This document shows positions 755 through 52,478 of a DNA stretch of 64,000 bases, one piece after another. The stretch covers positions 276,577 through 340,576 of the forward strand of contig CAZDPG010000001.1 in NCBI GenBank assembly GCA_964507275.1, in the 5' to 3' direction. Numbering within the stretch: the first letter of the stretch is position 1; each line of letters starts with the position of its first letter. Source of the DNA: an uncultured Candidatus Saccharibacteria bacterium. Lineage in GTDB: Bacteria; Patescibacteriota; Minisyncoccia; Phycocordibacterales; Phycocordibacteraceae. Below the pieces are notes generated by a model, which saw only the letters and a list, made by a program, of their open reading frames with translations, was not told where the DNA came from and did not search any database. Position numbers and translations under genes: made by a program.

Positions 755-1843
755 TTAGACTGCGGCGTACCGGCCGTCTTTCATCCGCTTGAAATACCGA
801 GGATCATTAAGATTCACGAGGATGGTATTGTCTTTCACGAAACGAGCAACCTTCACCTGCTTTATAATTTCCTCCTTCTTCATCGGACCATGTTCTTCGA
901 GCGCCTCGCGAATGACGTCGCGCACGACACCTGGCTTATAGCCCCATTCCGTAAGTGCGTAGAGACCGCGACCGACGAGCACGAAACGCGGATCCTTTAT
1001 GAGCTCGTTATGCGTGGTGGCGATATGTGCCTTCTTGGAGAAAAGCGAACCGATTGCTTTCGCGACATCAGAGAAGTGCATTGGCGATCCATGACGCTTG
1101 ATAGCGAGATACGCATAGTCGCGGATGCCCTTGATTCGGATTGCCGGTGCGGTTGCACGTCCCCACTGTGCGAGCGGATTGCTACCAATATGCTTGGAGA
1201 GCGAGAGCCAACGCTTCAGAACCTCTTCGTTCTTATACGCATCATTAATGCCCTTGAGTTCTTCGAGGAACCGGTCGAGGACTTCCCCTTCGGATACGAC
1301 TTCCTCGTCAGGAAGCGACGCATACAACCGTGACAGAGCATCGTGGATATTCTTGGCCGTGGCAGAATCAACATGCCAGCGAGAGAGAAAATCATTCGTT
1401 TCGCGCTCGCGGAAGAATGCAGAATCAAGTACGAGCAGGAAACGGAAACGATTCCGGCTCTTCTCATCTTTCCCGAGCACGGAAAGAAGCTCGTCCTCAG
1501 GCACGATAGCGCCGAGCGAATGGATGAACGCCGCAAGCTCTTCAAATGCTGATTTTGATTCCTTGAAGATTTTGCTTGCGCGTACCGCGTCAAGACCAGC
1601 AGCTTCAATCTGACGAACACGTTCACGGGTAATACTGGAGCGATCGCCAATAGCCTCAAGCGTCTCGCGCTTCACATTGGTACCGAGACCGAAACGGCGA
1701 GTCAGAACTTCGCGAGCGCGCTCTGGCGCGGCGGAAAGAAGGCGTTTTACGAGTGCGACACTATCGAAAGAAAATGAGGCAGAAGCAGGTGCTTTTGCCG
1801 ATCCGCGCTTTTTTGTCGCTTTCGTCTCCTTGGCCTTTGTCAT
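755..1843 (-). CDS. Sigma-70 region-4-like HTH plus C-terminal HARE-HTH domain protein (putative transcription factor)
   Basis: The N-terminal region LTRRFGLGTNVKRETLEAIGDRSSITRERVRQIEAAGL matches the sigma-70 region 4 HTH consensus. The C-terminal MHFSDVAKAIGSL…FVLVGRGLYALTEWGY resembles a HARE-HTH (RpoE delta-like) fold. Confidence 0.6.
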   Translation of the reverse strand: MTKAKETKATKKRGSAKAPASASFSFDSVALVKRLLSAAPERAREVLTRRFGLGTNVKRETLEAIGDRSSITRERVRQIEAAGLDAVRASKIFKESKSAFEELAAFIHSLGAIVPEDELLSVLGKDEKSRNRFRFLLVLDSAFFRERETNDFLSRWHVDSATAKNIHDALSRLYASLPDEEVVSEGEVLDRFLEELKGINDAYKNEEVLKRWLSLSKHIGSNPLAQWGRATAPAIRIKGIRDYAYLAIKRHGSPMHFSDVAKAIGSLFSKKAHIATTHNELIKDPRFVLVGRGLYALTEWGYKPGVVRDVIREALEEHGPMKKEEIIKQVKVARFVKDNTILVNLNDPRYFKRMKDGRYAAV

Positions 1844-19036: not shown

Positions 19037-19048
19037 GATAGCACTAAG

Positions 19049-19121
19049 TGGACCATAGGAGAGTCGAACTCCTGACCTCGTCAATGCGAATGACGCGCTC
19101 TACCAACTGAGCTAATGGCCC
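19049..19121 (-). tRNA. tRNA-Ala (anticodon CGC)
   Basis: Hand-folded cloverleaf GGGCCAT-TA-GCTC…, anticodon loop TTCGCAT, G3:U70 Ala identity pair, T-loop TTCGACT. Confidence 0.9.
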
Positions 19122-19157
19122 GCGTGAGATATGCTATCACGCTCAAAAAATATTTCA

Positions 19158-19228
19158 TCGGGCCGCCGGGAATTGAACCCGGCCTACCAACACCCCATGC
19201 TGGCGTACTACCGACATACTCCGGCCCG
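19158..19228 (-). tRNA. tRNA-Pro (anticodon GGG)
   Basis: 71-nt cloverleaf with acceptor CGGGCCG/CGGCCCG, anticodon loop ATGGGGT (G37) and T-loop TTCAATT. Confidence 0.85.
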
Positions 19229-19253
19229 TGATCCTTTCAAGAGACGTTCTCTG

Positions 19254-19324
19254 TCGGGCCGCCGGGAATCGAACCCGGTCTATACGAACCCGAATCGTAC
19301 GTACTACCGGCATACTCCGGCCCG
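19254..19324 (-). tRNA. tRNA-Pro (anticodon CGG)
   Basis: 71-nt cloverleaf with the same acceptor as the GGG isoacceptor, anticodon loop TTCGGGT and T-loop TTCGATT. Confidence 0.85.
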
Positions 19325-19343
19325 ACACAGAACACCTCCCGAG

Positions 19344-19417
19344 TGCGCTCCGCAGGATTCGAACCTGCGACCTTTCGCGTGTGAAGCGAACGCTCTAACC
19401 AACTGAGCTAGGAGCGC
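19344..19417 (-). tRNA. tRNA-Val (anticodon CAC)
   Basis: 74-nt cloverleaf GCGCTCC-TA-GCTC-AGTTGGTTA-GAGC…, anticodon loop TTCACAC, T-loop TTCGAAT. Confidence 0.9.
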
Positions 19418-19980: not shown

Positions 19981-20781
19981 TCAGAACTCCTCGAATATCG
20001 GGACGACATTTACTCTCGCTGACTTTACAAGAGGATCACCATTCGTCTCACACGAGACTGTGTACGTAGTTTGGGTGGTGATGACGTCTGATGCTCCCGA
20101 CGGGGAGAGATACGGGGCACCGTTCTTGGTGACGACACAATTCCCCACGTCCCTTGTCTCCCAGGTGATGGTGGATGAGCCGTTTACCCGCACGCGGACC
20201 GGCGACGCGCTAATGGCGACAAACGGATGGAGCACCGTTATGACCACTTGTGCCGCAGGACTGCACACGCCGCTCGCATACGCACAACAAATCTGATACG
20301 CCGACGAGTCGGTTAAAGGCCCGGTCGATATACTTCCGGAAGGCCCGACCGTGGACTCGGCGAAACCTCCTGACCACCGACACGACACCGCATCTGACGA
20401 TTCCCAGAAAAGTGTCGCGGACTGTCCAGTATCGATGGTGGTATCCCCCGTGGGAGACATATACATGGTCACGCTCGGAACGGGACACGAGGAATCTGGA
20501 GGTGTCGTCACTGAGCACGATCCATCGGACTGGACGATCCCGGTACTCGCCTGTCCGCATGCATTCGCAGGAGAAACGCAAGAAAGTACAAAACTCGAAC
20601 CGCACGCCGGGAAGACTTCACCTGCTCCCAACCGTTCTGACCATTTTGGAATTTTCGCAACTGTCCTGGAACCGGCTTCTTGCACAGCACTACTCACCGC
20701 AACAATTAATCCAAGGATGATGATGACCCCGAAGAATACTTGGTGCGCACGAGGAACTTCACTTACTCTTTTCATAGACAC
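19981..20781 (-). CDS. Secreted/anchored Cys-rich protein with beta-sandwich (Ig-like) character
   Basis: N-terminal signal anchor, more than 15 Cys, Ser/Thr/Gly-rich. Confidence 0.5.
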   Translation of the reverse strand: MSMKRVSEVPRAHQVFFGVIIILGLIVAVSSAVQEAGSRTVAKIPKWSERLGAGEVFPACGSSFVLSCVSPANACGQASTGIVQSDGSCSVTTPPDSSCPVPSVTMYMSPTGDTTIDTGQSATLFWESSDAVSCRWSGGFAESTVGPSGSISTGPLTDSSAYQICCAYASGVCSPAAQVVITVLHPFVAISASPVRVRVNGSSTITWETRDVGNCVVTKNGAPYLSPSGASDVITTQTTYTVSCETNGDPLVKSARVNVVPIFEEF

Positions 20782-20829: not shown

Positions 20830-21957
20830 TCAAAAATCAGACTCCTGCCACCCAAGCGAGAGAAGGTAGCCCTTAAAGCTGCTATCTATCTTTCCTAGAG
20901 CAACGAGCTGCTGAATCCGTGCGGAGGGAACCTCTTCTGTTCTCACGGAACGGAGATAATCCACCGAAGTAGCATGAATACTCCTCTCATTACCTAACCT
21001 GAATGATGCGAGGAGGTTCCTAATGTCTTGGGCACGCGTATCTCCATACCGATTCGCGAGAAAAGAAGCATATCTGAGTGCATAAGAGTTCCCTGGTTTG
21101 TCGCCTAGGGCGGTGGCGTACTGCACGCCATCCCCGAAATAAGGTTCCGCTTGTTCCGGACCACTAATTACACCAAGCGTCGCAAGATTATCAACCGTAC
21201 TTCCTGCTCGTACGAGAACTTCTGGAACAAGAAATCTTTCTTCACCGGCGCTCCGCATCCTCACGAGATCGGCGCCCGCCGCCTCCAGTCCTTGAACAAC
21301 ACGCGCGATGTATTCTTTCCCTTGCGGTGTTGACGTCGCTGCCTGTATCCCGAGGAGTTCGTCACTATACCCGTGGGCGATAAGCGCTTCACTGAGCGCG
21401 AACGGATATATGCTCGCAGCATGCTCAAAGAGTTTGATATACGCCATATTTAAGCTAGCACCGTTGTTCCTGAACGAACTATAAGGCGAATCCTTGAATG
21501 TCTCTGTGATGATCTTCTGGAGCGTTATGCTCCCCGAACCCGAATATGTGTGGTACATGAGACCGACGCTCGTGAGCGCAGCGGCACGAATGACGGCGTA
21601 ACTAGATGAGTCAGCGGCAATGGCCTTGAACTGAATGATTGCCTCTTCATATCTACCCAACTGTTCAGTCTCGCGCGCGATGTCGAGTGCTATCTGCGCT
21701 CTCTGGAAATCATCTTCTGCCACATCGAGAGACTTTTGATAACTCTTCAATGCAAGACCATGCTTCCCTTCTTTTCGAAGACCCTCCGCTACTGCATAAT
21801 CCGAATTGTACTTCATCAAGACACTGGCAGGAGTCTGACTAGCTGAGTATATCTGGGACGGCATACTTAAGATGACGTACCACACGGCGCCAGTGATGAG
21901 GAACAGTGGGAGTATGACGAAAATCCAAATCCTATTTATTGCTGTTGACTCCATCAT
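20830..21957 (-). CDS. Membrane-anchored hypothetical protein (helical-repeat or TPR-like region)
   Basis: N-terminal TM helix, then an Ala/Leu-rich helical region. Confidence 0.5.
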   Translation of the reverse strand: MMESTAINRIWIFVILPLFLITGAVWYVILSMPSQIYSASQTPASVLMKYNSDYAVAEGLRKEGKHGLALKSYQKSLDVAEDDFQRAQIALDIARETEQLGRYEEAIIQFKAIAADSSSYAVIRAAALTSVGLMYHTYSGSGSITLQKIITETFKDSPYSSFRNNGASLNMAYIKLFEHAASIYPFALSEALIAHGYSDELLGIQAATSTPQGKEYIARVVQGLEAAGADLVRMRSAGEERFLVPEVLVRAGSTVDNLATLGVISGPEQAEPYFGDGVQYATALGDKPGNSYALRYASFLANRYGDTRAQDIRNLLASFRLGNERSIHATSVDYLRSVRTEEVPSARIQQLVALGKIDSSFKGYLLSLGWQESDF

Positions 21958-22035: not shown

Positions 22036-22926
22036 TCACTTCTCGAACTCCGCGCGCGCAGCATCCAGGTTCCTCGCGATGCTCATCTGCATCTCTTCAA
22101 TACCCGCACGGGTAGCTGAAGGGTCATTCCCCGGATATGCTTTCTGCCATTCAACTTCGGTAAGGGATACAGCGAACGTCTGCGCCTTTGTCAGCGCGGA
22201 AACTGCTTCCGTGGGATTCCCCGAGTTCAGTTCCATCACACCGAGAGCATTCCAGAGCCACGGGTTCGTGTCACCGCCATCAGCCCTTTCGATTCCCTCT
22301 TTAAGCGTCGCGAGGGCGTGAGCATACCGTGTACCCTTTGCGAGCACGAATGCCAGGTCGTTGTACCCTGCCCACTCGCGTGGCGCCCAAGCTACGAACT
22401 CCTTGAAATCCTGCTCAGCACGGACGAGATCCCCCGGAAAGCCTCGATATGCGTATGCGAGACCGCGCATATACAACGCTCGTCTATTCTCCGGGAAAAG
22501 AGAAAGCTCCTTGGCAAGATCCGTAAGCGATGCACTGAAATCTGATTGAATGAACTCTATGCGAGCACGCATGTAATGTGCAAGCGGCAGTGATGGGTTG
22601 ATTACTGATGCTCTGCTAAAGGATCTCTTGGCAAGAGACAGATCATAAAGATGATTCTCTGCCGTGCCGATAGCCGTTTGGTTTCCGAAATAATAACTCC
22701 CGATAATAAAAGCTAGGTCTGCATCTGACCTATCGAGCGCGAGCGCGAGCTCGCCCGCGTGCCACTCGTCCCAAACATAGCGAGCGGCAATCGTCGGCAA
22801 GGGAGTGAAGAACCAGACGGTCGCCACAACAACGAGCGTTGCTATCGCAACCATAAAAAAGAAAAATCCTTCTTTTCTGAAGAGACTCATCATACATGAC
22901 GATAGTAACATGACTGGACTGGGCAT
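22036..22926 (-). CDS. Membrane-anchored TPR-like repeat protein
   Basis: N-terminal hydrophobic anchor followed by repeated A..Y…A..G helical pairs. Confidence 0.5.
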   Translation of the reverse strand: MPSPVMLLSSCMMSLFRKEGFFFFMVAIATLVVVATVWFFTPLPTIAARYVWDEWHAGELALALDRSDADLAFIIGSYYFGNQTAIGTAENHLYDLSLAKRSFSRASVINPSLPLAHYMRARIEFIQSDFSASLTDLAKELSLFPENRRALYMRGLAYAYRGFPGDLVRAEQDFKEFVAWAPREWAGYNDLAFVLAKGTRYAHALATLKEGIERADGGDTNPWLWNALGVMELNSGNPTEAVSALTKAQTFAVSLTEVEWQKAYPGNDPSATRAGIEEMQMSIARNLDAARAEFEK

Positions 22927-22989: not shown

Positions 22990-23598
22990 TTACTGGATCC
23001 GATACTTCATCAGCTCACGGACGATGAGTCCGGAGCCCGCGCGATCGCCATCATCGGAGAAGGTTCTTTTGACGAAGTTCTTGACGGCCGGAGCGTACCA
23101 CCATATGTCGGTGATGGTGCCACTTGAAATCGCGCCGAAGCCAGCCGACCCGGTGTACTTGTTCACGAATACGACTTTAAAAGCATCGAACGTGCCTGCT
23201 GGCACTTCGATCTTCTCGATTGCAACCACTTCGCGCGTGACGTTGAAATCCCAGTGCAGCCCTTGTGCATCATCGCTCGCCTTGTACGACTCCTTGCCAA
23301 TCTTTATCGGAAAAGTGAAATCGAGACTCTTGGCGGCAGTCGTTACGCCCCCTTTATCCTTCCCGAAGGGAACCTTCTGCCCGCCGATATCGGCAGTGAA
23401 CCCGCCCGTCGCAACGACGTCTATCACCGTCACCGAAAACAGCGAACTCGGATTACTCCTCCTGGTGTCGAGATAGGAGTATTCCCACGTATCGCCCACA
23501 TGACGATCTGGCAGATCCGCTTGCTGGACGAGGTCCTGGGCACTGACTGGCATGATTGCAGCAAACGCAAGTGTGATAACGGCTATAAGTGCTTTCAT
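22990..23598 (-). CDS. Secreted hypothetical protein (cleavable signal peptide)
   Basis: MKALIAVITLAFAAIMPVSAQD is a Sec signal with an AxA site, followed by a beta-rich mature part. Confidence 0.55.
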   Translation of the reverse strand: MKALIAVITLAFAAIMPVSAQDLVQQADLPDRHVGDTWEYSYLDTRRSNPSSLFSVTVIDVVATGGFTADIGGQKVPFGKDKGGVTTAAKSLDFTFPIKIGKESYKASDDAQGLHWDFNVTREVVAIEKIEVPAGTFDAFKVVFVNKYTGSAGFGAISSGTITDIWWYAPAVKNFVKRTFSDDGDRAGSGLIVRELMKYRIQ

Positions 23599-23715: not shown

Positions 23716-24963
23716 TTATTTGAATGTCTCTTCCAGTGCAAAATCCTTATCGGTCCACCCGTCTTTCGCGACGAGGAATGCGTGCAGTGTAGGACTCCGA
23801 CGAGCAACCGCGGCGATGTTTTCTCTTCGATAAGCATTCGAGAAATCAGTGCTCTTCGAGCCGATGAGTCTCCTCATAGCCCACGAATTCCTGCTCAGAG
23901 TGTTGAACGGCGGCACACCCGTCAGACGCCTAACCAGGGTTTCTATGGTGTCGTTATTTTCTGAAGTATTCTCCGAGAATCTGGCGAGATGCGCGGCATA
24001 CAGATACGTCGTATACGTGTCCAGGCCGACCGCCTCAGACTTGGCGATGGAGTGTGCGGTCTTGAGCATTTCTGTCGCATCCAGACCTGCGGCCTCAGGG
24101 AATTCATTCCCGAGATGATACAGCGTGATGCCGTCCATGATGATGGACAGATTATCCAAGCCAGCGACCGTGTCATATGCTGATATTCCACTTACGGAAG
24201 GAGAGAGTACCTTCTTGGCACCCGTAACAGCACGGCCGAGGAGCATGTGGGACAACGCCTTAAACTTCGCTAGAGTCTCCGCGTCCGTACCCGGTGTCCG
24301 AGAGATATACATGTAGTAGCTTCCGATTATCAAAGAGGCGTTGGCTGACGCAGCGAAAGCGTCTTCCCTCTCGCTCAGGGCTACGAGGTAGCTCGCGGCG
24401 AATCTCGTCTTCTGCCCGGAAGTTATCCCTTCGGCAGAAGCCGCCAGCTCTCGAGGGAAGAACACTGTCTCCGCAACTGATCTGAATTGCTGCAGGAATG
24501 GAGAGGTGGTTACTGCAGGAATGAGAATCCGCGGATCATCGACCGCATCATTGATGAGGAAGAACGCAGCGACGCTCTTGAATGACTCTGCGTTTACACT
24601 GTCTGAATCGAGAATCTTGAGCAGATAGGCAACGTTTTCCCGCGTGGCGCCAAAAGAGGCCGCGAGTCGGGACAAATCAAACAACCGAGAGACTTCATCG
24701 ATGGTTTCTGCCTTGAGCGTATCCGCTTTCGGTAGCCTGCTCAGAATGCTTGCGTCTGCTCGCTGTATCGCCTGGAGATATTCCATGTTGTGCTGCTCTA
24801 TGAATATATCGCTTCCCCTTACTTCTTCACTAGTTTCGGAAGGGGCTCCCGCGATATTAATGTTAACGTCCTCCGATACTTTCTGGTAATACAGGAACGC
24901 TCCGACGGCGATGGAGCTTACCAAGACGACTATGACGGACCCCACCAATAATCGATTGTTCAT
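23716..24963 (-). CDS. Membrane-anchored hypothetical protein (415 aa)
   Basis: N-terminal TM anchor followed by a large extracytoplasmic domain with no recognisable motif. Confidence 0.5.
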   Translation of the reverse strand: MNNRLLVGSVIVVLVSSIAVGAFLYYQKVSEDVNINIAGAPSETSEEVRGSDIFIEQHNMEYLQAIQRADASILSRLPKADTLKAETIDEVSRLFDLSRLAASFGATRENVAYLLKILDSDSVNAESFKSVAAFFLINDAVDDPRILIPAVTTSPFLQQFRSVAETVFFPRELAASAEGITSGQKTRFAASYLVALSEREDAFAASANASLIIGSYYMYISRTPGTDAETLAKFKALSHMLLGRAVTGAKKVLSPSVSGISAYDTVAGLDNLSIIMDGITLYHLGNEFPEAAGLDATEMLKTAHSIAKSEAVGLDTYTTYLYAAHLARFSENTSENNDTIETLVRRLTGVPPFNTLSRNSWAMRRLIGSKSTDFSNAYRRENIAAVARRSPTLHAFLVAKDGWTDKDFALEETFK

Positions 24964-25604: not shown

Positions 25605-25689
25605 GGTAACAAAGTATCCACAATCACCTGATTGTGGACAGTCGGCAATGGAAATCCCGAATGGAAGACGATGATGCTAGAATGGCGCG

Positions 25690-27351
25690 ATGGGTAATGG
25701 CGCGGATGATTTAGTATCCCTCAAGCAGAAGATTGCACAAGTGTGTTTTGTGAGCGAAAAAGAATACGAGCAATTGACCTATGGGCTAATAGTTTCTACG
25801 TGGTTATTCAATATAAAGAAAGTGCTGCTTGAAGCTGGCACATTGGACAACATATCGGCACTCCTTTTAGAGAAGGTGCGCGCACGCGAAGACTTCCAGA
25901 TAGGAGGGGTGGAGAGTGCCGCCATCCCACTCATCTCGGGAATCATAATGAAGTCGAAAGAGCGCGGCATACCGGCAAACGGGTTTTTCATACGGAAGGG
26001 CCGCAAGAAAGGAGGGATGTTCCAGACTATCGAGGGATCGCTCGGTGACGAAAGAATCGTCCTAGTGGACGACATCATGAATACAGGGAAGAGCTTCATC
26101 AAGCAAATCGAAGTGCTTGAATCCGTCGGGAAGAAAGTCGATACTGTCCTCTCCATCATCAGGTTCCGCGATATGGCCTATTACGAATATTTTCATAAGC
26201 GCGGCATTATGGTGTTATCGCTCTTTACGCTCGATGATTTCAAGGATCTCATCCGTGTAGAGAATATCGTCGACAAGCAGAAGAGCGCCCCGACGATGCC
26301 CTTCCAAGTGATGTGGCGATTTCAGAGCGAGAAGCCGAATTATTTCTATGTGGTGCCTAAGTCAGCGCCAGCAATCGATGACACGCGTATCTATTTCGGG
26401 AGCGACGTCGGCGTCTTCTGGGCGCTGAACCAAGAGGACGGGTCGGTGGCATGGAAACACACTGTCATGTTCGGCGCGGGAGGGAAGATGATATTTTCCT
26501 CTCCCGCCCTCTCCAATGATACCGTCTTCTTCGGCGCGTATGACGGAAATTTCTATGCGCTCGACAAAGAGACCGGGAAGAAGAAGTGGGTCTTCATGGA
26601 GGCTGACTGGATCGGCTCATCGCCCTGCATATCAGACAAGCTCGGGCTGGTGTATGTCGGTCTGGAATTCGGCCTCTGGAAGAAACAGGGCGGTATCGCT
26701 GCGCTCTCCATGGGGACCGGCAAGAAGGTCTGGGAATACCCGATGCCCGGCCTCACCCACTCGTCTCCTGCGTATTCGGCACGGCACAATGTCGTGGTGT
26801 GCGGATGCAACGACAACACGGTCTACGCTCTGCATGCCAAGACTGGCGCGCTCCTGTGGAAGTTTGAGACCGGGGGCGAGGTGAAAACATCTTTCGCATT
26901 CGACGAGAAGCGCGGATTGGTCTGCTTCGGCTCATTCGACACGCATCTCTACATACTGAATGTGAAGACGGGCGCGCTCGTGCACAAGATACCGACCGGC
27001 GAAGCGATCTACTCGACGCCGCTCGTATACGGCTCATACGTCTATATCGCATCGCTCGACAAGAATCTCTACTGCGTACATCTGGACACGGGGGCCGTGG
27101 CGTGGAAATTCGCGACCAACGGGAGGATCTTCTCCTCGCCTGAAGTGATAGACGGCAAGATCTATATCGGCTCTAACGATGGCCGGCTGTACGAGCTCGA
27201 TGCGCAGACCGGGACGTGTGTCGGATTCTTCCAGACGGCTGAACGTATCACGAACAAGCTCGCTTACAACAAGCAAACGCGAAATGTTTTCCTCCCGACC
27301 TTTGCGAACGAAATATATTGCCTGACGAGGAAGCATCCTGCAAAACAATAA
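25690..27351 (+). CDS. Fusion protein: type I phosphoribosyltransferase (orotate-PRTase-like) domain plus PQQ-type beta-propeller repeats
   Basis: PRPP-binding motif ERIVLVDDIMNTGKSF and an OPRT-like flexible loop FFIRKGRKKGG. At least 7 repeats of the G.DG.(V/L)YALD..TG...WK PQQ-propeller type follow. Confidence 0.8.
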   Translation: MGNGADDLVSLKQKIAQVCFVSEKEYEQLTYGLIVSTWLFNIKKVLLEAGTLDNISALLLEKVRAREDFQIGGVESAAIPLISGIIMKSKERGIPANGFFIRKGRKKGGMFQTIEGSLGDERIVLVDDIMNTGKSFIKQIEVLESVGKKVDTVLSIIRFRDMAYYEYFHKRGIMVLSLFTLDDFKDLIRVENIVDKQKSAPTMPFQVMWRFQSEKPNYFYVVPKSAPAIDDTRIYFGSDVGVFWALNQEDGSVAWKHTVMFGAGGKMIFSSPALSNDTVFFGAYDGNFYALDKETGKKKWVFMEADWIGSSPCISDKLGLVYVGLEFGLWKKQGGIAALSMGTGKKVWEYPMPGLTHSSPAYSARHNVVVCGCNDNTVYALHAKTGALLWKFETGGEVKTSFAFDEKRGLVCFGSFDTHLYILNVKTGALVHKIPTGEAIYSTPLVYGSYVYIASLDKNLYCVHLDTGAVAWKFATNGRIFSSPEVIDGKIYIGSNDGRLYELDAQTGTCVGFFQTAERITNKLAYNKQTRNVFLPTFANEIYCLTRKHPAKQ

Positions 27352-27380: not shown

Positions 27381-27387
27381 TGTTCTG

Positions 27388-27460
27388 TGGACCGTACAGG
27401 ATTCGAACCTGCGACCCCCTCATTGCAAATGAGGTGCTCTACCAACTGAGCTAACGGCCC
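27388..27460 (-). tRNA. tRNA-Ala (anticodon TGC)
   Basis: 73-nt cloverleaf GGGCCGT-TA-GCTC-AGTTGGTA-GAGC, anticodon loop TTTGCAA, G3:U70, T-loop TTCGAAT. Confidence 0.9.
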
Positions 27461-37972: not shown

Positions 37973-40363
37973 TTATTTGATAACTTTCTCAAATTCATCA
38001 GGGCCTGGAGCTTTCATAAACTCCCTGAAGAAACCAAGAAACCCGGTTGTCTGTACAGGGGCACCAGAAGGAACCACCTTCCCGTCTACGAGGTGCCACG
38101 GAATGCGGTGCTCCCCATTATCGTCAGCGGCATAGATAATCTTGTCTGGATTCTTGATGAGATAGTCGAGAATCATCTTCCCCCGCTCTACCGGCGAGCC
38201 GCCATACGCAAATATACGATTAGCGCTATCGGCATACAAATGCGGCACTGCTGCCGGCACTTCCACGCCGAACGAGTTTACGACGCTATGGGGTTCCATA
38301 ATCGGAGCCCGAACCGCTTCAGCAGTCCCTTGATTGGCGACATCCTGCGCAGGTGTAAGGTCCACGGTCTTTACCGGTTCTGGAGAGACGATCTGCTCAG
38401 GAGCAATAGTATGTGGCATCGCCGTCTCTACCGGAGCGGGCGTTTGTTCATTCACGAGTCCCGTCAATGGGTTTATCTCTTGCGGAGCGGCCGACTGCGT
38501 ACCGAAGTACAAATCGAGCGCTTCCGGCGTCGGTGCTGGCGATTCGACATGCGGTATGGTGAACGCCGTAGGTGTCACCGCGACATGCGCCGGAGCAACC
38601 TGCAGCTCACGGCCGGCATCAGAGAGGAAGAGCTCGCCTCGTGCGCCAATCGTCATCTGCGCATCCGGCGTGATGAGGACACTCGAACCATCAGCGCGGA
38701 AGAACTGATGCTTCGAATCAGATGCAATCTCATGTACGAGTTTATCTATAGAATCCTCATCCGCTGCGAGAAGCCGCGCGAGGTCACTCTCGGGATTCGC
38801 ATTTGCAGGCAGCTCGACGCCTTTCGTATGCAAATCTTCCCAAAGTCGCTTCATCATATATTCATAGCCGTGCCCGGCCGACGCTTTAACGGTCGGCATT
38901 TCGATTGTCGTAGGAGCTGTTGCTTCCGGTGCTGTAGTTGGAGCGGCTTCGCCCACTACGGGAGCATGGATTTCTGGCCCTGGCGCGGTGTCAGGAGCGA
39001 GCGTTTTGTTCCCGGTCATGCTCCCAATCCACCTGAGTATCGCCTCATCCTTCTGAGGCTGGTTCGCGAAATCGATAGCCTCCTTCACCCCCTCGACCAA
39101 AAGCATCATGGCCCCGGTCATACCAGCCGTATAGAGTATCGCCTTCCCCATCGCCTTTTCTTTCTCCCATTTTCCATCCTGTGCAGACTTTTCGTATTTC
39201 AAGAACATTGCTGATAATCCAGCGATACGCTGTGCGCCGATGCCTGCCCCGGTAAAGACGAGCCCCAGAGCCGCCGGGATCGACGCTCCTGCTGCTGCCG
39301 AGACGCCCATCCCGATGCCGAGACTGAGACCAACGGCAACCTTACTCTTCCATCCGAGTTTCCCGTACCACTCCCCAAGTGATCGGAAACCTTTTTCTGT
39401 TTTAGCGGCTATGGCCGTATCCAGTTCGCCCAATCGCCCAGAGAGATGTGTCTTCATGCGTTCAGGTCCTCCAGAGACTTTCTCTTTCGCGCCCTCGCCG
39501 AACTTTCCGACGAGCTCGCGCAATTTCTGCTTCCACTCTTTCGGTGTACCGTCCGCCATGGGGACGTCTTCTGTCTCGCCTTCCGCGGCGTCTGCGACAA
39601 ACTCTCCTCTCGTTCGAGCTTTCTTGTTTCTGTTTATTTGTTCTTGCACGTCTGCTTCAAGTGCATTTCTTGCTCCGGCGCCGAATAACACATCCATGTC
39701 AGCCTGCATCTCGGGGTTAATGGTGTATTGTGACGCATTCAGAGTACTTTCGTCTACGCTCGGTACCGAATGCGGATCAAAAGGTTCTTCTGTCTGGGCG
39801 GCTGACTCCGAAAGGTCAATATCGAGACCACGTCGTGCGATGGACTTCTTCGCAGAGCGCACATCGGAACTCGTGGGAGACTTCTTGCTTTTCTTCTTGC
39901 TTCGCGCCACATCAGCGCGCAGTTTTTCCAGATACCCTTCCCGTCTGGATTCAGGGAGTCTCTCATACAGCCGCAATGCGTCGGCAGGAATCTTGTCGCC
40001 AAATATTGCTGAGAGTTCGCTCGGAACGTTCGCGACATCTTTCGACACGGCCTCAGGCATTGAAGACCCATCTGCTGCTCCCTGCTTACTAAGCAATTCA
40101 AAGACTTCGTTCCCGACAGATACACCAAGCTCCCTTTCTTCTTTCCGTCGTGCCTCGGCCTCTTGCATCGCGAGCCCTATTGCTGTCGACTGTGCCTCTG
40201 ATTTCGCGTCGGCAATAGGGGTTGCTATAGGTAGTTCCCCGCCATTTCTCTTAGCATCAACGGCGGCTCTTCTATCTTTCTTATTTCGCCCACCATTCTT
40301 CTCAGAAGAATCGTCGTCATCTCGTGGAGGATAGTCTTTTCTAGGGTTTATACGTTCAGACAT
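37973..40363 (-). CDS. Large (796 aa) VirB6/TrbL-like membrane protein with long low-complexity flanks (tentative)
   Basis: A central cluster of 3-4 TM helices sits between charged, Pro/Ala-rich arms. The start lies 6 nt after the upstream ATPase stop. Confidence 0.5.
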   Translation of the reverse strand: MSERINPRKDYPPRDDDDSSEKNGGRNKKDRRAAVDAKRNGGELPIATPIADAKSEAQSTAIGLAMQEAEARRKEERELGVSVGNEVFELLSKQGAADGSSMPEAVSKDVANVPSELSAIFGDKIPADALRLYERLPESRREGYLEKLRADVARSKKKSKKSPTSSDVRSAKKSIARRGLDIDLSESAAQTEEPFDPHSVPSVDESTLNASQYTINPEMQADMDVLFGAGARNALEADVQEQINRNKKARTRGEFVADAAEGETEDVPMADGTPKEWKQKLRELVGKFGEGAKEKVSGGPERMKTHLSGRLGELDTAIAAKTEKGFRSLGEWYGKLGWKSKVAVGLSLGIGMGVSAAAGASIPAALGLVFTGAGIGAQRIAGLSAMFLKYEKSAQDGKWEKEKAMGKAILYTAGMTGAMMLLVEGVKEAIDFANQPQKDEAILRWIGSMTGNKTLAPDTAPGPEIHAPVVGEAAPTTAPEATAPTTIEMPTVKASAGHGYEYMMKRLWEDLHTKGVELPANANPESDLARLLAADEDSIDKLVHEIASDSKHQFFRADGSSVLITPDAQMTIGARGELFLSDAGRELQVAPAHVAVTPTAFTIPHVESPAPTPEALDLYFGTQSAAPQEINPLTGLVNEQTPAPVETAMPHTIAPEQIVSPEPVKTVDLTPAQDVANQGTAEAVRAPIMEPHSVVNSFGVEVPAAVPHLYADSANRIFAYGGSPVERGKMILDYLIKNPDKIIYAADDNGEHRIPWHLVDGKVVPSGAPVQTTGFLGFFREFMKAPGPDEFEKVIK

Positions 40364-40369
40364 ACGAAA

Positions 40370-43129
40370 TTAGTTCGAGAGGTATCGCTCGCGAATCATA
40401 TTCTCAACTGTAGCACGGTCGCGGCCGTAGGTGAGCGAGGAGAGGTGCACGAGATCGTCTATCTGTGCGGGGTTCGTTTGTGGCAAATTCGGCGTCTTCA
40501 TATCAAAAGGCTTCTGCGGTATGCCTCCCACGAGTATCCGTACATAAGCGTTCCTATTCTCGATATTCACGAAATCGAGCGATTCAAAAACGGGAGCGAA
40601 CTGTTTCGCGAAGAATTCCGCGTCCTCCTCCCCCACGCGGAAGACCGCCATATTCCCGACGTTGCCGAAGACGGCACTGCGCGTTTTCTCTTCGATCTGA
40701 CTCAGGAACTGATGTGCCATAGAGAGGGCGAGTTTGTACTTGCGGGCTTCGGAGAGGATGCCTGGGATGGAGTCGGTAGTGACGTTCTGGAATTCGTCGA
40801 TGTAGAGATAGAACGGCGGGTATGGAGTACGCGGATTATCTGCGCGAGACAGGGCTGCCATGAAGAGCTTCCCGACAATAATGAGGCCAAGCAAGTTCGC
40901 ATTACGTTCACCAAGCCGACCCTTCGACAGATTCACGAGGAGAATCTTCTTCGAGTCCATCACCTCGCGGAAATTGAATGAGGACTTCTGCTGCCCCACG
41001 ATCGGACGTATGAAGTCGTTTGCAGTGAAGTCATCGAACTTGTTCGTAATATACGGGACGATATTCTCAAGAGCGGCATCACCGCCCGCCTTCGTCGCGA
41101 TGTCATTCCAGAATTGATTCACGACTGGGTTCATACTCTTCGCAAGTTTCTGTCGGCGGAACTCGCTATTGGAGAGCACACGAGCGATGTCGAGCATCGT
41201 CGAGCCACTCGCCGGATCCTCCATCACGAGCAGAGTCGCATTACGGAAATACTGTTCGAACGCCGGGCCCATGCTCTCAGGCACGTCACCGTAGAGCCGT
41301 TTGAAGATCATCAGGAGTTCATTCACGATGAACGTCTTCTGCTCAGGGCGCGCCATATCGTATTCGAGGAAGTTGAGTCCGAAGGGACGAGATAGGTCGG
41401 CAGGATCGAAATAGATGACATCCTGATACCGCTCGGGAGGCACCGCAGCAAGGATGTCGAGGATGTCAGAGCCGTGAGGATCAATGTAGCAACACCCGTC
41501 GCCATTCTGGATGTCCTGGATGATCATACTCTTCATGAGTCCAGTCTTACCGGTACCGGTCTGCCCGACGACATAGAGATGACGCAAACGATCCTCGGGA
41601 CTCAAGTGTATCTCGGTCACCGATCCTCGATACTCATTGACCCCAAACAGAGACCCTTCGCTCGGAAGCCCGAGCGGGGCTGGCGCGTGTGTGAAGCGCG
41701 ACTGCTTCAAATGCGGCGAGCTCTCAATGCCAGTCGGCGGGAAGTGATACAAGGTCGTGAGTTCACGAAGTGATAGCGGGAGTGCCTCCGCGCTCGGCAG
41801 GCGGAAGGAGAAATCTTCGAGCACCCGCGGCGCATGGCGAGCGTCCACGCGCACAAACTGCAACCGATTACCCTGCGTGTTCGCGAATTGATTGAACGCC
41901 GCTTCAAGATCACCGAGCACCTGATTCGCAACACCAGTGTCGCCCGAGGAGACGGCAAGACGCAACGTCGTACCGACGATGGGTGTCGCGATCTTCTTCT
42001 CCACTTGCTCAATATGCGCTTTATTCGCTTCAATCTGCCGCGTCTCGGCTTCCTTCGCTTTCTCGACATCCTTCGGTTTATTCCCGAAGAGCGTCTTGCT
42101 GAAGTCTCGCGCGATTTCGCCAATCATCGTCTCTGGCGTGTTGAATGCCGTGCCCTGCTTCTCGCCCTTGCGGAGCGCCTGGAGAATCTTCCGGTAGTGC
42201 TTCACGTGTCGCTCGCCGCGAGGTTCTATGATGATTTGAAGTGCTGCTCCTTCGCCAGTGTGTTCTATCTTCGCGAACGCATTCATGACGGCGTTTATCG
42301 GGTCATAATCGAAATCAGTGTATTCCTTGAGTGGAAGCGCCGGATTCTCTGCGAGGCGCGCGACCGATGCGAGCGCGGTTCCATTCGTCGCAAAAATGTT
42401 GTAGTCGTGCGGCTGAGGCATGAGATGCGCATCGGGGAATATCGCCAAGAGCTGCTTCTCGAAAAGATTACGCTTCCCGTTCGGCACCGCGGCATAGAAT
42501 TGGAGCTCAGGACTATCAGCGGGCACCGCAAGCTCGAGCGCGAAATAATTCGGTTCACCGTGCGTTGCGTCAGCGACCGAGAGGAGCCCGGCATAAAATT
42601 GCTCCATACCGGAGATGAGCTCCTTGAGCGTTTTCGCACGCGTGTGCGGTTCACCGCCCTTCGGACCGGGGAGTTCTATCTCATACAGCGTCATATGGAG
42701 CGCCTGAAAGCGCGGTGCTTTTTCGTCGAAACCAAGCGCGGGCAATCCAGCGGCAATATAGCGTACGAGATAGCGATGGAAATCGTCTGCAACATGCGGG
42801 TCGCCGAGCTTCTCAAGCACCGCGAGCGCATTCTTGATTCCCTTCTCTTCCATCGTCTTCTGCAGACTCCTCACGGCCTGCTCGCTTCCACCCATATTGA
42901 GATCAGCAAGTATCGCCTCTGCTTCGCTTATTTTCGTCGCTTCGCTTATGCGATATTCGGGCGCAAGCATTTCCTCTCCGGCTGCATGATGTGCATGCAG
43001 ATGCTCGACGATGACCTGTTCGCGTTCCGGCACACCGACCTCAGCAAGCTCCGCCTCCTTTGCAGCAACTTGCTCGCGCAGATATGCAAGCTCTTCCTCA
43101 GGCGTCGATAGTTTCGGTACTGATTCCAT
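40370..43129 (-). CDS. VirB4/TrbE-like (AAA_10/DUF87-type) P-loop ATPase, conjugation/T4SS-like
   Basis: Walker A LYVVGQTGTGKTGLMKS in the C-terminal half and Walker B FYLYIDEFQN, with a long N-terminal non-ATPase domain. The layout matches VirB4/TrbE rather than VirD4. Confidence 0.7.
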   Translation of the reverse strand: MESVPKLSTPEEELAYLREQVAAKEAELAEVGVPEREQVIVEHLHAHHAAGEEMLAPEYRISEATKISEAEAILADLNMGGSEQAVRSLQKTMEEKGIKNALAVLEKLGDPHVADDFHRYLVRYIAAGLPALGFDEKAPRFQALHMTLYEIELPGPKGGEPHTRAKTLKELISGMEQFYAGLLSVADATHGEPNYFALELAVPADSPELQFYAAVPNGKRNLFEKQLLAIFPDAHLMPQPHDYNIFATNGTALASVARLAENPALPLKEYTDFDYDPINAVMNAFAKIEHTGEGAALQIIIEPRGERHVKHYRKILQALRKGEKQGTAFNTPETMIGEIARDFSKTLFGNKPKDVEKAKEAETRQIEANKAHIEQVEKKIATPIVGTTLRLAVSSGDTGVANQVLGDLEAAFNQFANTQGNRLQFVRVDARHAPRVLEDFSFRLPSAEALPLSLRELTTLYHFPPTGIESSPHLKQSRFTHAPAPLGLPSEGSLFGVNEYRGSVTEIHLSPEDRLRHLYVVGQTGTGKTGLMKSMIIQDIQNGDGCCYIDPHGSDILDILAAVPPERYQDVIYFDPADLSRPFGLNFLEYDMARPEQKTFIVNELLMIFKRLYGDVPESMGPAFEQYFRNATLLVMEDPASGSTMLDIARVLSNSEFRRQKLAKSMNPVVNQFWNDIATKAGGDAALENIVPYITNKFDDFTANDFIRPIVGQQKSSFNFREVMDSKKILLVNLSKGRLGERNANLLGLIIVGKLFMAALSRADNPRTPYPPFYLYIDEFQNVTTDSIPGILSEARKYKLALSMAHQFLSQIEEKTRSAVFGNVGNMAVFRVGEEDAEFFAKQFAPVFESLDFVNIENRNAYVRILVGGIPQKPFDMKTPNLPQTNPAQIDDLVHLSSLTYGRDRATVENMIRERYLSN

Positions 43130-43271: not shown

Positions 43272-44285
43272 GTGCAAAACTACTTCATCGGCGGTGTCGG
43301 GATGAGCCTACCCATTATGGTCGGGGCTGGTGCCTGCAAGACCCCTATGAGCACCCTTCCGTATATGCGGCACGATGTTTCGGTGGGAGCTGTTTCCACC
43401 GGTTCATACACGCCCCAAATACGGACCGGCAACGAAGGGGTGCTGTCCTGGCCGGAAGATGCTTCTGAGTTCATGCAGGAGGTCGTTGGCCTCAATTCGT
43501 TCGGCATGCCGAACATGGGAAACGAGCGAGCGGCGGCAGAACTCAAGCGCTTCAGCCTCGCACACCCGCTCATCGCAAGTGTCGCCGGATTCTCTGTTGA
43601 CGACTACGTTGCAGGGGTACGAGCATTCGATAGCGTTCCGTGCGTTTCCGCCATTAAGGCAAATCTCGGATGCCCGAACGTACACGGCAAGCCGGTACCT
43701 ATCGCCTATGACCCCGACTCGCTCCTGGAAATCCTCGAGGCAATGTTCCAACTGCAACCCACGAAACCAATCTGGCTCAAGCTGTCGCCATACATTACCG
43801 CGAAGGAGCGCGACAATCTTCAATCGACCTATCCGCTCATCGATTTCTCCAACGTACCAGTGGTTGATCCGGGTTTTCTCGGCGACATCCTGAGCATCGT
43901 ATGGGAATATCAGCACTTTGTCCGGGCGGTCGTCTTCAGCAACACGCTGCCAAACGTCACCATCCTTGGTGAATCTGGGAATCCAGTCACGACGCCGAAC
44001 GGCGGCAAGGCTGGCCTTTCCGGAAAGATACTCAGGCCGATCTCTATCAACTTGATACGGCAAGCGGCAACCATGCTTCCGGGCCATGTTGATCTAATCG
44101 GCTCTGGCGGCGTCACGCATGGAGATCATGCAGTCGAGTATTTCGCCGCCGGTGCACAAGCGGTGTTCTGCACGTCCGGTCCTTTCTGGGCTGGGAACAA
44201 CCCGCGATTCTTCGCGGACATGCTGTCCGGAAGCGAACGTCTTCAGGAATACCTTTCGCAACATTCCCAACACAAGGAGGACTGA
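43272..44285 (+). CDS. pyrD: Dihydroorotate dehydrogenase family protein (class 1-like)
   Basis: FMN/substrate TIM-barrel blocks (NSFGMPN…, GSGGVTHGDHAVEYFAAGA). Directly adjacent to pyrC. A GTG start is possible. Confidence 0.8.
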   Translation: MQNYFIGGVGMSLPIMVGAGACKTPMSTLPYMRHDVSVGAVSTGSYTPQIRTGNEGVLSWPEDASEFMQEVVGLNSFGMPNMGNERAAAELKRFSLAHPLIASVAGFSVDDYVAGVRAFDSVPCVSAIKANLGCPNVHGKPVPIAYDPDSLLEILEAMFQLQPTKPIWLKLSPYITAKERDNLQSTYPLIDFSNVPVVDPGFLGDILSIVWEYQHFVRAVVFSNTLPNVTILGESGNPVTTPNGGKAGLSGKILRPISINLIRQAATMLPGHVDLIGSGGVTHGDHAVEYFAAGAQAVFCTSGPFWAGNNPRFFADMLSGSERLQEYLSQHSQHKED

Positions 44286-44288
44286 ACC

Positions 44289-45392
44289 ATGACGATGAAA
44301 GCATATCCGCCCTGCGTACTCGACATGGAGTACGCAGGGTCGACACTTACCATCACCCGGCCGGACGATTGGCATCTGCATCTGCGCCACGGCCGATACA
44401 TGGCCGATATCGTCGGCGACTCGGCACGGCGCTTCGGTCGGGCACTTATCATGCCTAACCTGAAGCCGCCGATTACGACCACCCTCCAAGCGTGGGCGTA
44501 CTACGAAGAAATCCGCGCGGAGGTGAAAAAACTCGATCTGGGTCACTTCGAACCCTTGATGACGCTCTATCTCACGGACAACACACCGCCCGACGAGATC
44601 AATCGCGCTAACGGAAGCACCTTCATGAAGGCGGTCAAGTACTATCCCGCCGGTGCGACCACCAACTCTGATTCCGGCGTGACCGACATCAGGCTGGTGT
44701 ACCCCGTACTGGAGCGGATGCAGAAGCTCGGCATGGTGCTGTGCGTTCATGGCGAAGTCACCGACCCCGACGTCGACATCTTCGACCGCGAAGCCGTCTT
44801 CATCGACCGTGTGCTCGAGCCGCTCCGCAAAGACTTCCCCGCTCTCAAGATCGTGCTCGAGCACGTCACCACGAGGCAGGGTGTGGAGTTCATCATCCAC
44901 GAAGAAAGGAATCGCCATCCGACCGCCGCAACCATCACAGCGCACCACCTGCTCCTGAACCGGAACGCAATCTTCAAGGGCGGCATCAATCCGCACCATT
45001 ACTGCTTGCCAGTATTGAAACGCGAAGAGCATCGCCAAGCGCTTCTGTGGGCAGCGACGAGCGGCAGCCCGTTCTTTTTCCTCGGCACTGACTCGGCACC
45101 GCATTTGCGCGGCACCAAGGAATCCGCGTGCGGCTGCGCCGGATGCTTCACGGCCCATGCAGGCATCGAGCTCTATGCCGAGGTATTCGAATCGGCTGGC
45201 AAGCTCGATATGCTCGAGAGTTTCGCGAGCGAGTTCGGCGCAGACTTCTATGGACTTCTGCCGAACACGGACACGATCACACTCGTGAAAGAGTCGTGGG
45301 AAGTCCCTGGACAGCTGCCGTTCGGCGACCACGTCGATGGCGTCGTCCCTCTCCGGGCCAGTGAGATGATGAAGTGGAAGATACAGGAGTAG
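44289..45392 (+). CDS. pyrC: Dihydroorotase (type II)
   Basis: [12 protein letters not shown] metal-binding motif and a conserved C-terminal Asp region. Confidence 0.9.
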
Positions 45393-51770: not shown

Positions 51771-52478
51771 CTAACGAACCTCAAAAAACACTTTCGGTTT
51801 TGTGTCTAGAATATTAGCCTTAATCTCTGGGAATTCCTCCCCTTGTTGGATTCTTTCTACAAACTGTGCAAGCTCTCCGTCAAATGGGTACGCGTACGCG
51901 TCACAGGGAATACCTCTGACGGGTACACGACTTATACACTCTGGCAACTCCTCCAAGATATACGTCGCAAACTTCGATACGTCTTCTTCTGAGAACTTTC
52001 GTTCCTCTTTTGCTATTTGATTTCTTACAATTGCCTTTAAAGCTTCCGCGAACGCCACACTGGATTCAAAAAGTCCATATAGATAGTTCACTTTTCTCTT
52101 GTATGTCGAATCGTCCAGATCTTTCCAGGTAGCATAGAAGACTTTCTCGGCCTCATCCGGCCGGAAATTGATTTTTATATACTCCTCAACTTTAGAGAGG
52201 ATTTCTCTCCCCTTTCCAGTCGCGGAGCGCACCGCCTTATCATAAGGAATACGATTCCTGACTTCTAGGTTTATGGCATGAATCGTGTCAGCGGCGTAAA
52301 CAACCACACTCTCACGAGAGTATTGCAGGGCCCATCGTACGAGTTCCGCTGTATTCTCTACAGAAAACCATTTATTACCAAGACTTATCGCGACTCCGAT
52401 ATTATATTTCCTTGCCTGAAGTTCAGCTTTACTTCCGCCGCGAATCTTATATAGCTCCATGTAACTGGAATATGGCAC
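51771..52478 (-). CDS. Cyclodipeptide synthase (tRNA-dependent CDPS) family protein
   Basis: IGVAISLGNKWFSVENTAELVRWALQYSRESVVVYAADTIHAINL aligns with the AlbC/YvmC pocket block L(I/V)GIS.(G/F)N(S)(Y/R)FS…W…V.V……H. A later YILEELPECI block matches Y(V)(L/I)AE(A/L)P(L/F)F, which carries the catalytic Glu. GTG start at 52478, or ATG at 52460. The gene is clearly lower in GC than its surroundings. Confidence 0.7.
   Translation of the reverse strand: MPYSSYMELYKIRGGSKAELQARKYNIGVAISLGNKWFSVENTAELVRWALQYSRESVVVYAADTIHAINLEVRNRIPYDKAVRSATGKGREILSKVEEYIKINFRPDEAEKVFYATWKDLDDSTYKRKVNYLYGLFESSVAFAEALKAIVRNQIAKEERKFSEEDVSKFATYILEELPECISRVPVRGIPCDAYAYPFDGELAQFVERIQQGEEFPEIKANILDTKPKVFFEVR

Follow-up and report, generated by a model that had tools for sequence, protein, structure and literature searches.

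What might a phosphoribosyltransferase (PRTase) be doing with a large β-propeller fused to its C terminus? The question is raised by a gene in a 64-kb stretch of DNA, hereafter the window, from contig CAZDPG010000001.1 of an uncultured Candidatus Saccharibacteria bacterium. The initial annotation of this gene, which we call the target, read its product as a fusion of a type I PRTase domain resembling orotate phosphoribosyltransferase (OPRT) to a propeller of the pyrroloquinoline quinone (PQQ) type. It offered either a functional pyrE or a surface/scaffold propeller as explanation. The fusion itself is borne out by the pyrE model TIGR00336, by OPRT structures, by Pfam and by an AlphaFold2 model, and the protein belongs to a widespread, uncharacterised family of Patescibacteria (Paceibacteria). 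The most informative fact about this family is its conserved place in gene clusters for peptide maturation, both those resembling the clusters of thiazole/oxazole-modified microcins (TOMMs) and those built on radical S-adenosylmethionine (rSAM) enzymes. Because relatives conserve a neighborhood of YcaO, SagB, precursor-like and tetratricopeptide repeat (TPR) genes and carry fusions to tailoring domains, we favor a role in peptide maturation with a catalytic PRTase domain, a reading that we would put at about an even chance.

Sequence and structure comparisons leave little ambiguity as to what the N-terminal domain resembles. TIGR00336 matches aa 36-184 of the target over model positions 22-173 of 173 (E value 3.8e-20, 72.4 bits) and scores 75.7 bits on the N-domain alone, which is below its equivalog cutoff of 106.8 bits. 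In Pfam the two modules fare differently, with Pribosyltran staying just under its gathering score (23.3 vs. 26.3 bits) and PQQ_2 (PF13360) matched at 1.2e-34. The top sequence matches of the N-domain in the Protein Data Bank are solved OPRTs, both for the single sequence (2yzk, 5.5e-9; 5hkf, 5e-8) and for a profile of 21 family N-domains (2p1z, 1.2e-14; 5hkf, 2.2e-13; 2wns, 3e-13), the alignment of which spans the hood motif, the flexible loop and the motif binding phosphoribosyl pyrophosphate (PRPP). The E values of the domain matches are far beyond chance. Each of the 21 family N-domains tested has pyrE as its top-ranking family (best E value 1.5e-24); the best-scoring one reaches an estimated ~87 bits, so none attains the pyrE cutoff, and the PyrR model is matched by one of the 21. 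A PRTase of the kind found in defense systems was considered and rejected, the best PADLOC match being PRTase_III-A with an E value of 1.6e-3 and 15.9 bits over 42 residues; PADLOC gave no match among the target's neighbors.

The PRPP site could be examined residue by residue. In the OPRT of Mycobacterium tuberculosis (MtOPRT), PRPP is contacted by R38, R94, K95, K98, E120/D121, T124, T125, G126, and S128, with T124 acting via its backbone amide (PMC5430920). Mapped onto the target, these correspond, in the same order, to K43 (an Arg in most of the family), R102, K103, K106, D127/D128, N131 (an Asn that is invariant across the family), T132, G133, and S135, and each contact has an identical or conservative counterpart. 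The two motifs quoted by the initial annotation, FFIRKGRKKGGMFQTIEG and ERIVLVDDIMNTGKS, were correctly identified, since they align with the flexible loop and the PRPP motif of OPRTs, respectively. Target R160 aligns with the Arg that follows the fifth strand of OPRTs and that, going by Salmonella OPRT, we take to bind orotate. Conservation was then scored over 101 representatives clustered at 50% identity, with a median of 35% identity to the window protein. Positions conserved in at least 90% of members number 26, and 19 of these fall in the PRTase domain: W38, D41, Q70, G73, E75, P80, F99, R102, K103, R105, K106, E115, G116, D127, D128, N131, G133, L143, and F179. They include six loop residues (R102, K103, R105, K106, E115, and G116) and four in the PRPP motif (D127, D128, N131, and G133), and the window protein retains every loop and PRPP-motif residue of the family. 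Because 19 of the 26 lie there, the PRTase domain is the selected catalytic core of the protein and very probably binds PRPP. All this identifies the N-domain, at the level of sequence, as derived from an OPRT and as having kept the complete PRPP-binding and catalytic-loop apparatus. Q70, E75, and N131, the latter in place of a conserved OPRT Thr, are invariants specific to the family; located near the predicted acceptor site, they suggest that this site is altered. Loop residues 105-111 have a low predicted local distance difference test score (pLDDT) in the AlphaFold2 model, as expected of a mobile loop.

The C-terminal module is matched over its length by Beta-prop_ACSF4 (PF13570) with an E value of 5.9e-62. 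The AlphaFold2 model, computed with 44 family members as input (pLDDT 86.6; predicted TM-score 0.76), displays eight four-stranded blades as assigned by DSSP, closed by strand 205-212, which decides between the seven or eight blades initially counted. Best Foldseek matches are BamB and the designed eight-bladed Cake8 (target-normalized TM-score of 0.93), with YxaL and tetrathionate hydrolase also found. Membership in the named families is not supported: the protein scores 120.8 bits with the BamB model TIGR03300 (cutoff 285.2) and has no lipoprotein signal, while the PQQ-dehydrogenase models TIGR03075 (80 vs. 480 bits) and TIGR03074 (39 vs. 833 bits) remain under cutoff and a signal peptide is absent. 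The propeller is the more variable of the two modules, since only structural Gly, Trp, and Pro residues and the E518-R519 pair are at least 90% conserved in it. This pair probably lies on the top face, and the TERIT motif surrounding it is also present in a distant homologue from the rSAM cluster described below. Since neither a hydrophobic signal-like nor a transmembrane-like segment was found in the target, nor a lipobox, the protein is predicted to be cytoplasmic. The surface or scaffold propeller that had been proposed is therefore unsupported, and a secreted or surface-exposed form was rejected.

How widespread is this architecture? A whole-protein search returned 1,069 matches, the best 120 of which are 458-732 aa long and share 49-100% identity with the target at a query coverage of 81% or more; the identical one lies on a 673-kb contig. 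With the N-domain by itself, a word-index homology search gave no match, a limit of the tool, and an exhaustive HMMER search with aa 1-200 was used instead, its matches being counted as clusters at 50% identity. It yielded 2,146 matches at E≤1e-3, of which 415 remained at E≤1e-10; the top 150 are nearly all fusion proteins of 530-575 aa, and the N-domain forms a clade of its own. Apparent stand-alone N-domains of ~190-212 aa (P0144, P0187, and P0244) were not accepted as a free-standing form, since they come from contigs of 1-1.8 kb or have no contig data and are probably truncated genes. With a pattern scan, 115 relatives were confirmed among GTDB species genomes, of which the 80 retrieved belong to Paceibacteria-type lineages and include a complete Kaiserbacteria chromosome (CP066682.1); homologues with names are all from Paceibacterota, Kaiserbacteria, Wolfebacteria, and similar groups. 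One contig labeled Candidatus Bathyarchaeia (L039, DATGZC010000063.1) has a typical YcaO-SagB-target operon with 47% identity and is most likely mis-binned Patescibacteria. The architecture is thus unusual, as initially stated, only when set against textbook PRTases, for it defines a large conserved family in Patescibacteria; the possibility that it might be both common and annotated has come half true, the existing names being merely generic ("PQQ-binding-like beta-propeller repeat protein" at NCBI, "BamB/orotate phosphoribosyltransferase" at JGI). Our literature searches found nothing on this family, on YcaO with a PRTase or propeller partner, or on clusters of this type for peptides synthesized ribosomally and modified post-translationally (RiPPs) in the candidate phyla radiation. 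On one contig (CAYQQI010000001.1), two paralogous target genes lie ~18 kb apart, each near a YcaO gene (L028 and L078), which argues for a specialized rather than a housekeeping role.

Gene neighborhoods are more telling than domain composition. In five distant homologues, the upstream genes are alike and the outer flanks differ, and BLAST identified the shared genes as those encoding, in the window, the Cys-rich, helical-repeat, and TPR proteins of Table 1. We then called and clustered the open reading frames (ORFs) within 10 kb of the target gene in 81 loci, 28 of which are well flanked (at least 8 kb on both sides). In this subset, a membrane-anchored TPR protein (cluster c3) is found in 23 loci, a helical-repeat protein of ~375 aa (c1/c21) in 22, a YcaO (c2) in 19, and a nitroreductase-fold protein (c4, SagB) in 15. 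The c2 proteins are of the SagD family (TIGR03604, 2.3e-51, under its cutoff) and the c4 proteins are SagB-family peptide dehydrogenases (TIGR03605, 124 bits, over the 78.4 cutoff). The YcaO proteins end in PHPF(P/S/A), a PxPxP-type motif, and such C termini are linked to YcaO cyclodehydratases that form azolines (PMC12338566). SagB is the immediate co-directional neighbor of the target in 15 loci, 10 of which have a gap of -8 to +20 bp, and there are 14 collinear YcaO-SagB-target triples; these sets are operons. In about two thirds of the well-flanked loci, the target lies inside or close to an operon with YcaO and SagB. The target is often translationally coupled to YcaO/SagB and divergent from a precursor-like gene and from the membrane-anchored TPR proteins. 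No pyr gene is adjacent to the target or among its recurrent neighbors in any of the 81 loci, and no E1/ThiF-like protein occurs among the recurrent neighbor families annotated. Other recurrent neighbors are a polytopic membrane protein (c5), Cys-rich secreted proteins (c6 and c8), a membrane-anchored rhodanese (c9), a DsbA-like thioredoxin (c14), PaaK/F390-synthetase-like ligases (c10), and an AMMECR1 protein (c13). A Rosetta-stone link between the target and AMMECR1, through protein P0227, was rejected as the AMMECR1 match has 19.8 bits and the c13 profile misses P0227. The model of c1 is all-helical and TPR-like (pLDDT 64.5), with generic TPR matches only (TM-score ~0.3).

The precursor-like ORFs encode 80-135 aa, adjoin c1 and are usually divergent from the YcaO-SagB-target operon. 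They share a layout consisting of an N-terminal hydrophobic segment, a junction of the form (I/V)-P-(V/T)-A-(H)-A|D-(V/A)-P, and, at the C terminus, a core of ~40 residues composed of 31% G, 15% D, 14% S, and 6.5% C. The A-x-A|D junction resembles a signal-peptidase site. Simple precursor-like criteria are satisfied by ORFs in 48 of 80 loci; 39 of 41 lie within 150 bp of a c1/c21 gene, and 51 of 55 contain Cys. Their median Ser+Thr content is 11 in loci with YcaO or SagB, against 5 in loci without. In three loci, a Hint/intein-like domain (CFP...G...VHN) sits between the leader junction and the Gly/Asp-rich tail of precursor-like proteins (L047, 354-1124; L048, 4071-4976; L049, 2134-2949), which suggests autoprocessing variants of the same substrate family.

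Fused relatives extend this picture. In the long ones, the PRTase-propeller core has acquired an Asp/Asn β-hydroxylase (at either end), an HlyC-type acyltransferase, a formyltransferase, or a Stf0 sulfotransferase. In one further protein, encoded on a 1.5-Mb contig with 34% GC, an rSAM domain is fused to the PRTase, and the gene lies in a cluster with HxsD (a Pfam match) and at least eight rSAM genes (L089). There, a 539-aa PRTase-propeller directly follows a 101-aa ORF that has a hydrophobic leader, a "VVADDVV" junction, and GSH repeats. HXS (His-Xaa-Ser) is an antiphage system in which rSAM enzymes mature a signal-bearing protein with HxS repeats that is then exported; neither a PRTase nor a propeller is mentioned in its description (PMC13128918). 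HxsB/HxsC, HxsD, and an HxS-repeat effector were not found in the window; HxsD, rSAM genes, and the GSH-repeat ORF surround the L089 member instead. Taking the YcaO/SagB loci together with L089, the family accompanies two different maturation chemistries on similarly built substrates.

Part of this neighborhood is recognizable in the window (Table 1). A tblastn search with the neighbor families found the c1 protein, the TPR protein, and a c6-like protein, as well as a weak rhodanese-like match at ~50.4-50.6 kb. The c1 protein ends in the conserved ...SLGWQESDF, and in relatives c1 directly adjoins the precursor-like ORF; the Cys-rich protein has an N-terminal transmembrane or signal segment. 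Across the divergent intergenic region, the target's neighbor is the only ORF of the window that satisfies the precursor-like criteria. This Gly-rich protein is atypical in that it is longer than its 80-135-aa relatives, having a "PGDIP" junction, a Gly/Asp/Ser/Cys-rich stretch (FGGGDGSASGDCGSASSG...GGGGGGGGGGG), and an additional C-terminal domain of ~110 aa. The next gene overlaps it by 4 bp and hence belongs to the same operon; its anchored product was considered as a c1 paralogue, an idea that was discarded because it does not match the c1 HMM.

If the protein works in peptide maturation, we infer that it acts on small Gly-rich peptides. The propeller would dock the precursor peptide, the partner enzymes, or both, and the PRTase would use PRPP to transfer ribose-5-phosphate onto a peptide nucleophile, for which a heterocycle nitrogen made by YcaO/SagB and the conserved Asp at the leader/core junction are the candidates. 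The modification would be cytoplasmic, ahead of export of the peptide and its cleavage at the A-x-A|D site, and in this genome the likely partner would be the adjacent Gly-rich membrane protein. The outcome would be acidic Gly-rich peptides that carry nucleotide decorations and, once secreted, reside on the surface of an ultrasmall episymbiont, possibly serving host interaction or, like HXS, as a barrier to phages. An order of events in which YcaO cyclizes, SagB oxidizes, and the target phosphoribosylates would parallel the chemistry of PyrC, PyrD, and PyrE, a parallel that is suggestive only. This precise chemistry, a PRPP-dependent phosphoribosylation of a ribosomally made peptide, would be a new post-translational modification, and we put it forward tentatively, as an unlikely but specific proposal.

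Several observations weigh against a role in peptide maturation. We know of no PRPP-dependent modification of a ribosomal peptide and of no PRPP-using tailoring enzyme in RiPP enzymology, and a literature search for such a modification found none. The most constant neighbors (c1, TPR, and Cys-rich proteins) are extracytoplasmic and the target is cytoplasmic, so the synteny could in part reflect a conserved gene order and no functional link. No YcaO, SagB, c5, c8, c10, or c13 was found in the window by tblastn, and the window is among the 9 of 28 well-flanked loci that lack both YcaO and SagB, which means that the link to azole chemistry is not obligatory; the nearest relative with known context (P0004, locus L007) lacks both as well. 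The Gly-rich ORFs are of low complexity and are candidate substrates only. In every motif, true OPRTs are the closest match to the N-domain, and the hood of the window protein does not follow the family consensus, having N41 for D41, K43 for R43, and no SGxxS. Finally, a pyrC and a pyrD-like gene are present in the window and no other pyrE was seen among the ORFs tested.

These last points lead directly to the view that the target is a housekeeping PyrE, converting orotate and PRPP to orotidine monophosphate, with the propeller as an added module for interaction or stability. The best-family assignment of all 21 N-domains, the end-to-end alignment with OPRT structures (hood motif included), and the conservation of all PRPP contacts and of R160 are what would be expected of it. 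As initially noted, pyrD and pyrC lie 16 kb downstream, adjacent to each other and followed by a gene for a DedA-family protein, and no second pyrE candidate, nor a pyrF or pyrB, was detected among the other window ORFs tested. The pyrD-like match is weak, and the pyrC would fit a horizontal acquisition: its relatives (58-66% identity, in 80 metagenome loci) come from unrelated bacteria with a median GC content of ~60% (39-73%), against ~55% for the window, and none of these loci has a pyrD-like or OPRT-like neighbor beside PyrC. The functional pyrE of the initial annotation keeps an intact PRPP site in its favor, but the 72-76 bits fall short of the curated cutoff, the N-domain forms its own clade, the best 150 matches of the exhaustive search are nearly all fusions, and Q70, E75, and N131 suggest an altered acceptor site. 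Moreover, it is SagB and YcaO rather than any pyr gene (0 of 81 loci) that are the operon partners, one contig carries two paralogues, and some relatives bear fused tailoring-type domains, one of them in an rSAM peptide cluster. On balance, we regard a housekeeping PyrE as improbable.

Two further explanations were considered. The protein could be a non-catalytic partner or scaffold of YcaO that takes the place of the E1-like C protein, its propeller binding the leader and its PRTase-like domain binding PRPP or a nucleotide only for structure or regulation, in the manner of PurR/PyrR. Azoline-forming YcaOs require a partner protein for leader binding; the target holds the third position in YcaO-SagB operons, where no E1/ThiF-like family recurs among those annotated, and its propeller is the more variable module, as expected of a recognition element. 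We nevertheless consider this doubtful, since the strongest conservation is on the Arg/Lys residues of the catalytic loop and on the Asp-Asp pair, not just on the ligand-binding backbone, since no YcaO accompanies the target in the window, in the L089 rSAM cluster, or in 9 of 28 loci, and since the YcaO has an N-terminal extension of ~127 aa that could itself hold a leader-binding element. Alternatively, a PRTase acting on a free small molecule would turn a base other than orotate into a nucleotide-like metabolite, with the propeller as a second site for catalysis or binding and with peptide-type neighbors that are there by coincidence. Type I PRTases normally act on free bases, the family-specific residues lie near the acceptor site, and neighbors such as the PaaK/F390-synthetase-like ligases, AMMECR1, and rhodanese are atypical as RiPP enzymes. 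Against this stand the tight and recurrent association with two peptide-specific families, SagB and YcaO, the pairing with precursor-like ORFs in two unrelated types of system, and the failure of any candidate base-forming pathway to be conserved across loci, so that we think this explanation very unlikely. We thus retain peptide maturation by a catalytic PRTase as the working interpretation.

Positions of the target, its neighbors, and other features are given in Table 1. Apart from the genes discussed above, the cyclodipeptide synthase match is unexpected in a genome-reduced Patescibacterium and would be a second hint of peptide-type secondary metabolism in the window. The pair encoding 919-aa and 796-aa proteins may represent a module resembling conjugation or type IV secretion systems, and the 362-aa protein may be an atypical transcription factor.

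Table 1. Features of the window (coordinates in the 64-kb stretch; aa numbering refers to the target).
Feature	Position	Strand	Basis or remark
Target gene, PRTase-propeller fusion	25690-27351	+	ORF call: ATG start, 553 aa
Type I PRTase domain of OPRT type, aa 1-205 (HMM core aa 36-184)	25690-26304	+	TIGR00336, OPRT structure alignment
Flexible catalytic loop, F99-G116 (FFIRKGRKKGGMFQTIEG): R102, K103, R105, K106, E115, G116	25984-26037	+	MtOPRT alignment
PRPP-binding motif, E121-S135 (ERIVLVDDIMNTGKS): D127, D128, N131, T132, G133, S135	26050-26094	+	MtOPRT alignment
Eight-bladed PQQ/BamB-like propeller, aa 205-553	26302-27351	+	PF13570, PF13360, DSSP, Foldseek
E518-R519, propeller loop before strand 525-527	27241-27246	+	Conservation mapped on DSSP
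Divergent intergenic region, 85 bp, target vs. Gly-rich gene	25605-25689		Layout conserved in relatives
214-aa Gly-rich protein, N-terminal transmembrane helix	24960-25604	-	Candidate substrate or partner
415-aa N-terminally anchored protein, no Pfam match	23716-24963	-	4-bp overlap with Gly-rich gene
202-aa secreted protein, signal-like N terminus (c38)	22990-23598	-	Recurs in 3 loci
296-aa membrane-anchored TPR protein (c3)	22036-22926	-	TPR Pfam; homologues in L001, L003, L005
375-aa membrane-anchored helical-repeat protein (c1)	20830-21957	-	BLAST; c1 HMM 4.8e-72
266-aa Cys-rich secreted protein, related to c19 and c6	19981-20781	-	BLAST to L001, L003, L005; tblastn with c6
Four tRNA genes (Ala-CGC, Pro-GGG, Pro-CGG, Val-CAC)	19048-19417	-	Border the TPR/c1 block
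tRNA-Ala(UGC)	27387-27460	-	36 bp past target stop codon, opposite strand
pyrD-like gene, weak	43272-44285	+	121 bits, cutoff 269
pyrC, dimer type	44289-45392	+	TIGR00856 442 bits, cutoff 293
235-aa ORF, tRNA-dependent cyclodipeptide synthase match	51771-52478	-	TIGR04539 59.2 bits, cutoff 45
919-aa protein	40370-43129	-	VirD4/TraD-type coupling-protein segment
796-aa ORF, unannotated	37973-40363	-	Adjacent to the 919-aa protein gene
362-aa protein	755-1843	-	Sigma-70 region-4-like segment of ~60 residues (aa 18-95), weak RNA polymerase delta-like stretch

The modules of relatives show some further peculiarities of arrangement. In two loci (L061 and L066), the TPR/c1 block and the YcaO-containing module are repeated on the other side of a single target gene, and in L061 the repeated block also holds rhodanese and thioredoxin genes. 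In many genomes (those of L003, L005, L020, L028, L042, L069, and L072), rpsJ (S10) and rplC (L3) are separated by the whole module, which interrupts an S10 ribosomal-protein operon that is universal elsewhere. A recurrent pair of proteins of ~230 and ~366 aa (c20/c18; L032, L033, L052, L055, L065, L068, L069, and L086), neither of which has a Pfam or NCBIfam match, features an SGGIDS PP-loop-like motif in its larger member and may act in these clusters as one more ATP-dependent tailoring enzyme.

The interest of the family lies in an OPRT-derived enzyme with a propeller that, in many Patescibacteria, occupies the conserved third position of YcaO-SagB operons. Catalysis on peptides would mean a new modification and a new mode of precursor recognition, and the predicted small, exported, acidic Gly/Cys-rich products would be candidates for the poorly understood surface biology of episymbionts. 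Counting the family as PyrE would inflate estimates of pyrimidine autonomy for symbiotic, genome-reduced bacteria; if it really is PyrE, these organisms would have an unrecognized form of the pyrimidine pathway.

How, then, does the target compare with systems already described? With OPRTs (5hkf from M. tuberculosis, 2p1z from Corynebacterium diphtheriae, and 2wns, the human UMPS domain) it shares the type I PRTase fold, all PRPP contacts, the hood (S)G....(Y/W).(v/f)D.(R/K), the loop RK..K..G...IEG, and the acidic pair followed by (T/N)(T/S)GxS. Its family differs in staying below the pyrE cutoff, in having an Asn for the PRPP-loop Thr and invariant Q70/E75, in the fused 350-aa propeller, and in never lying beside pyr genes. 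PRTase domains have been recruited outside nucleotide synthesis in PyrR, PurR, and retron type III-A effectors, but the target has no significant similarity to these and OPRT is clearly closest. The propeller has the eight blades and PQQ-repeat signature of BamB, YxaL, and Cake-type propellers and of AASDH (ACSF4, PF13570). In contrast to BamB-type proteins, the target has no lipoprotein or secretion signal, scores far below the BamB and PQQ-dehydrogenase cutoffs, and is a predicted cytoplasmic protein fused to an enzyme; AASDH is likewise an enzyme-propeller fusion, with a different enzyme.

At the level of gene clusters, most relatives share with TOMM systems (SagBCD and McbBCD) a SagD-type YcaO, a SagB dehydrogenase, and small Gly/Ser/Cys-rich ORFs, whose cores are reminiscent of microcin B17-type precursors. 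Unlike these systems, they have no visible E1-like C protein, the PRTase-propeller being found in third position, and their precursor-like ORFs are very Asp-rich and carry a transmembrane or signal-like leader with an A-x-A|D junction; the window itself is without YcaO and SagB. With HXS the shared logic is that cytoplasmic enzymes mature a signal-bearing, low-complexity repeat protein that is then exported, whereas the published four-gene system has neither PRTase nor propeller (PMC13128918) and the Patescibacteria clusters use YcaO/SagB rather than HxsB/HxsC.

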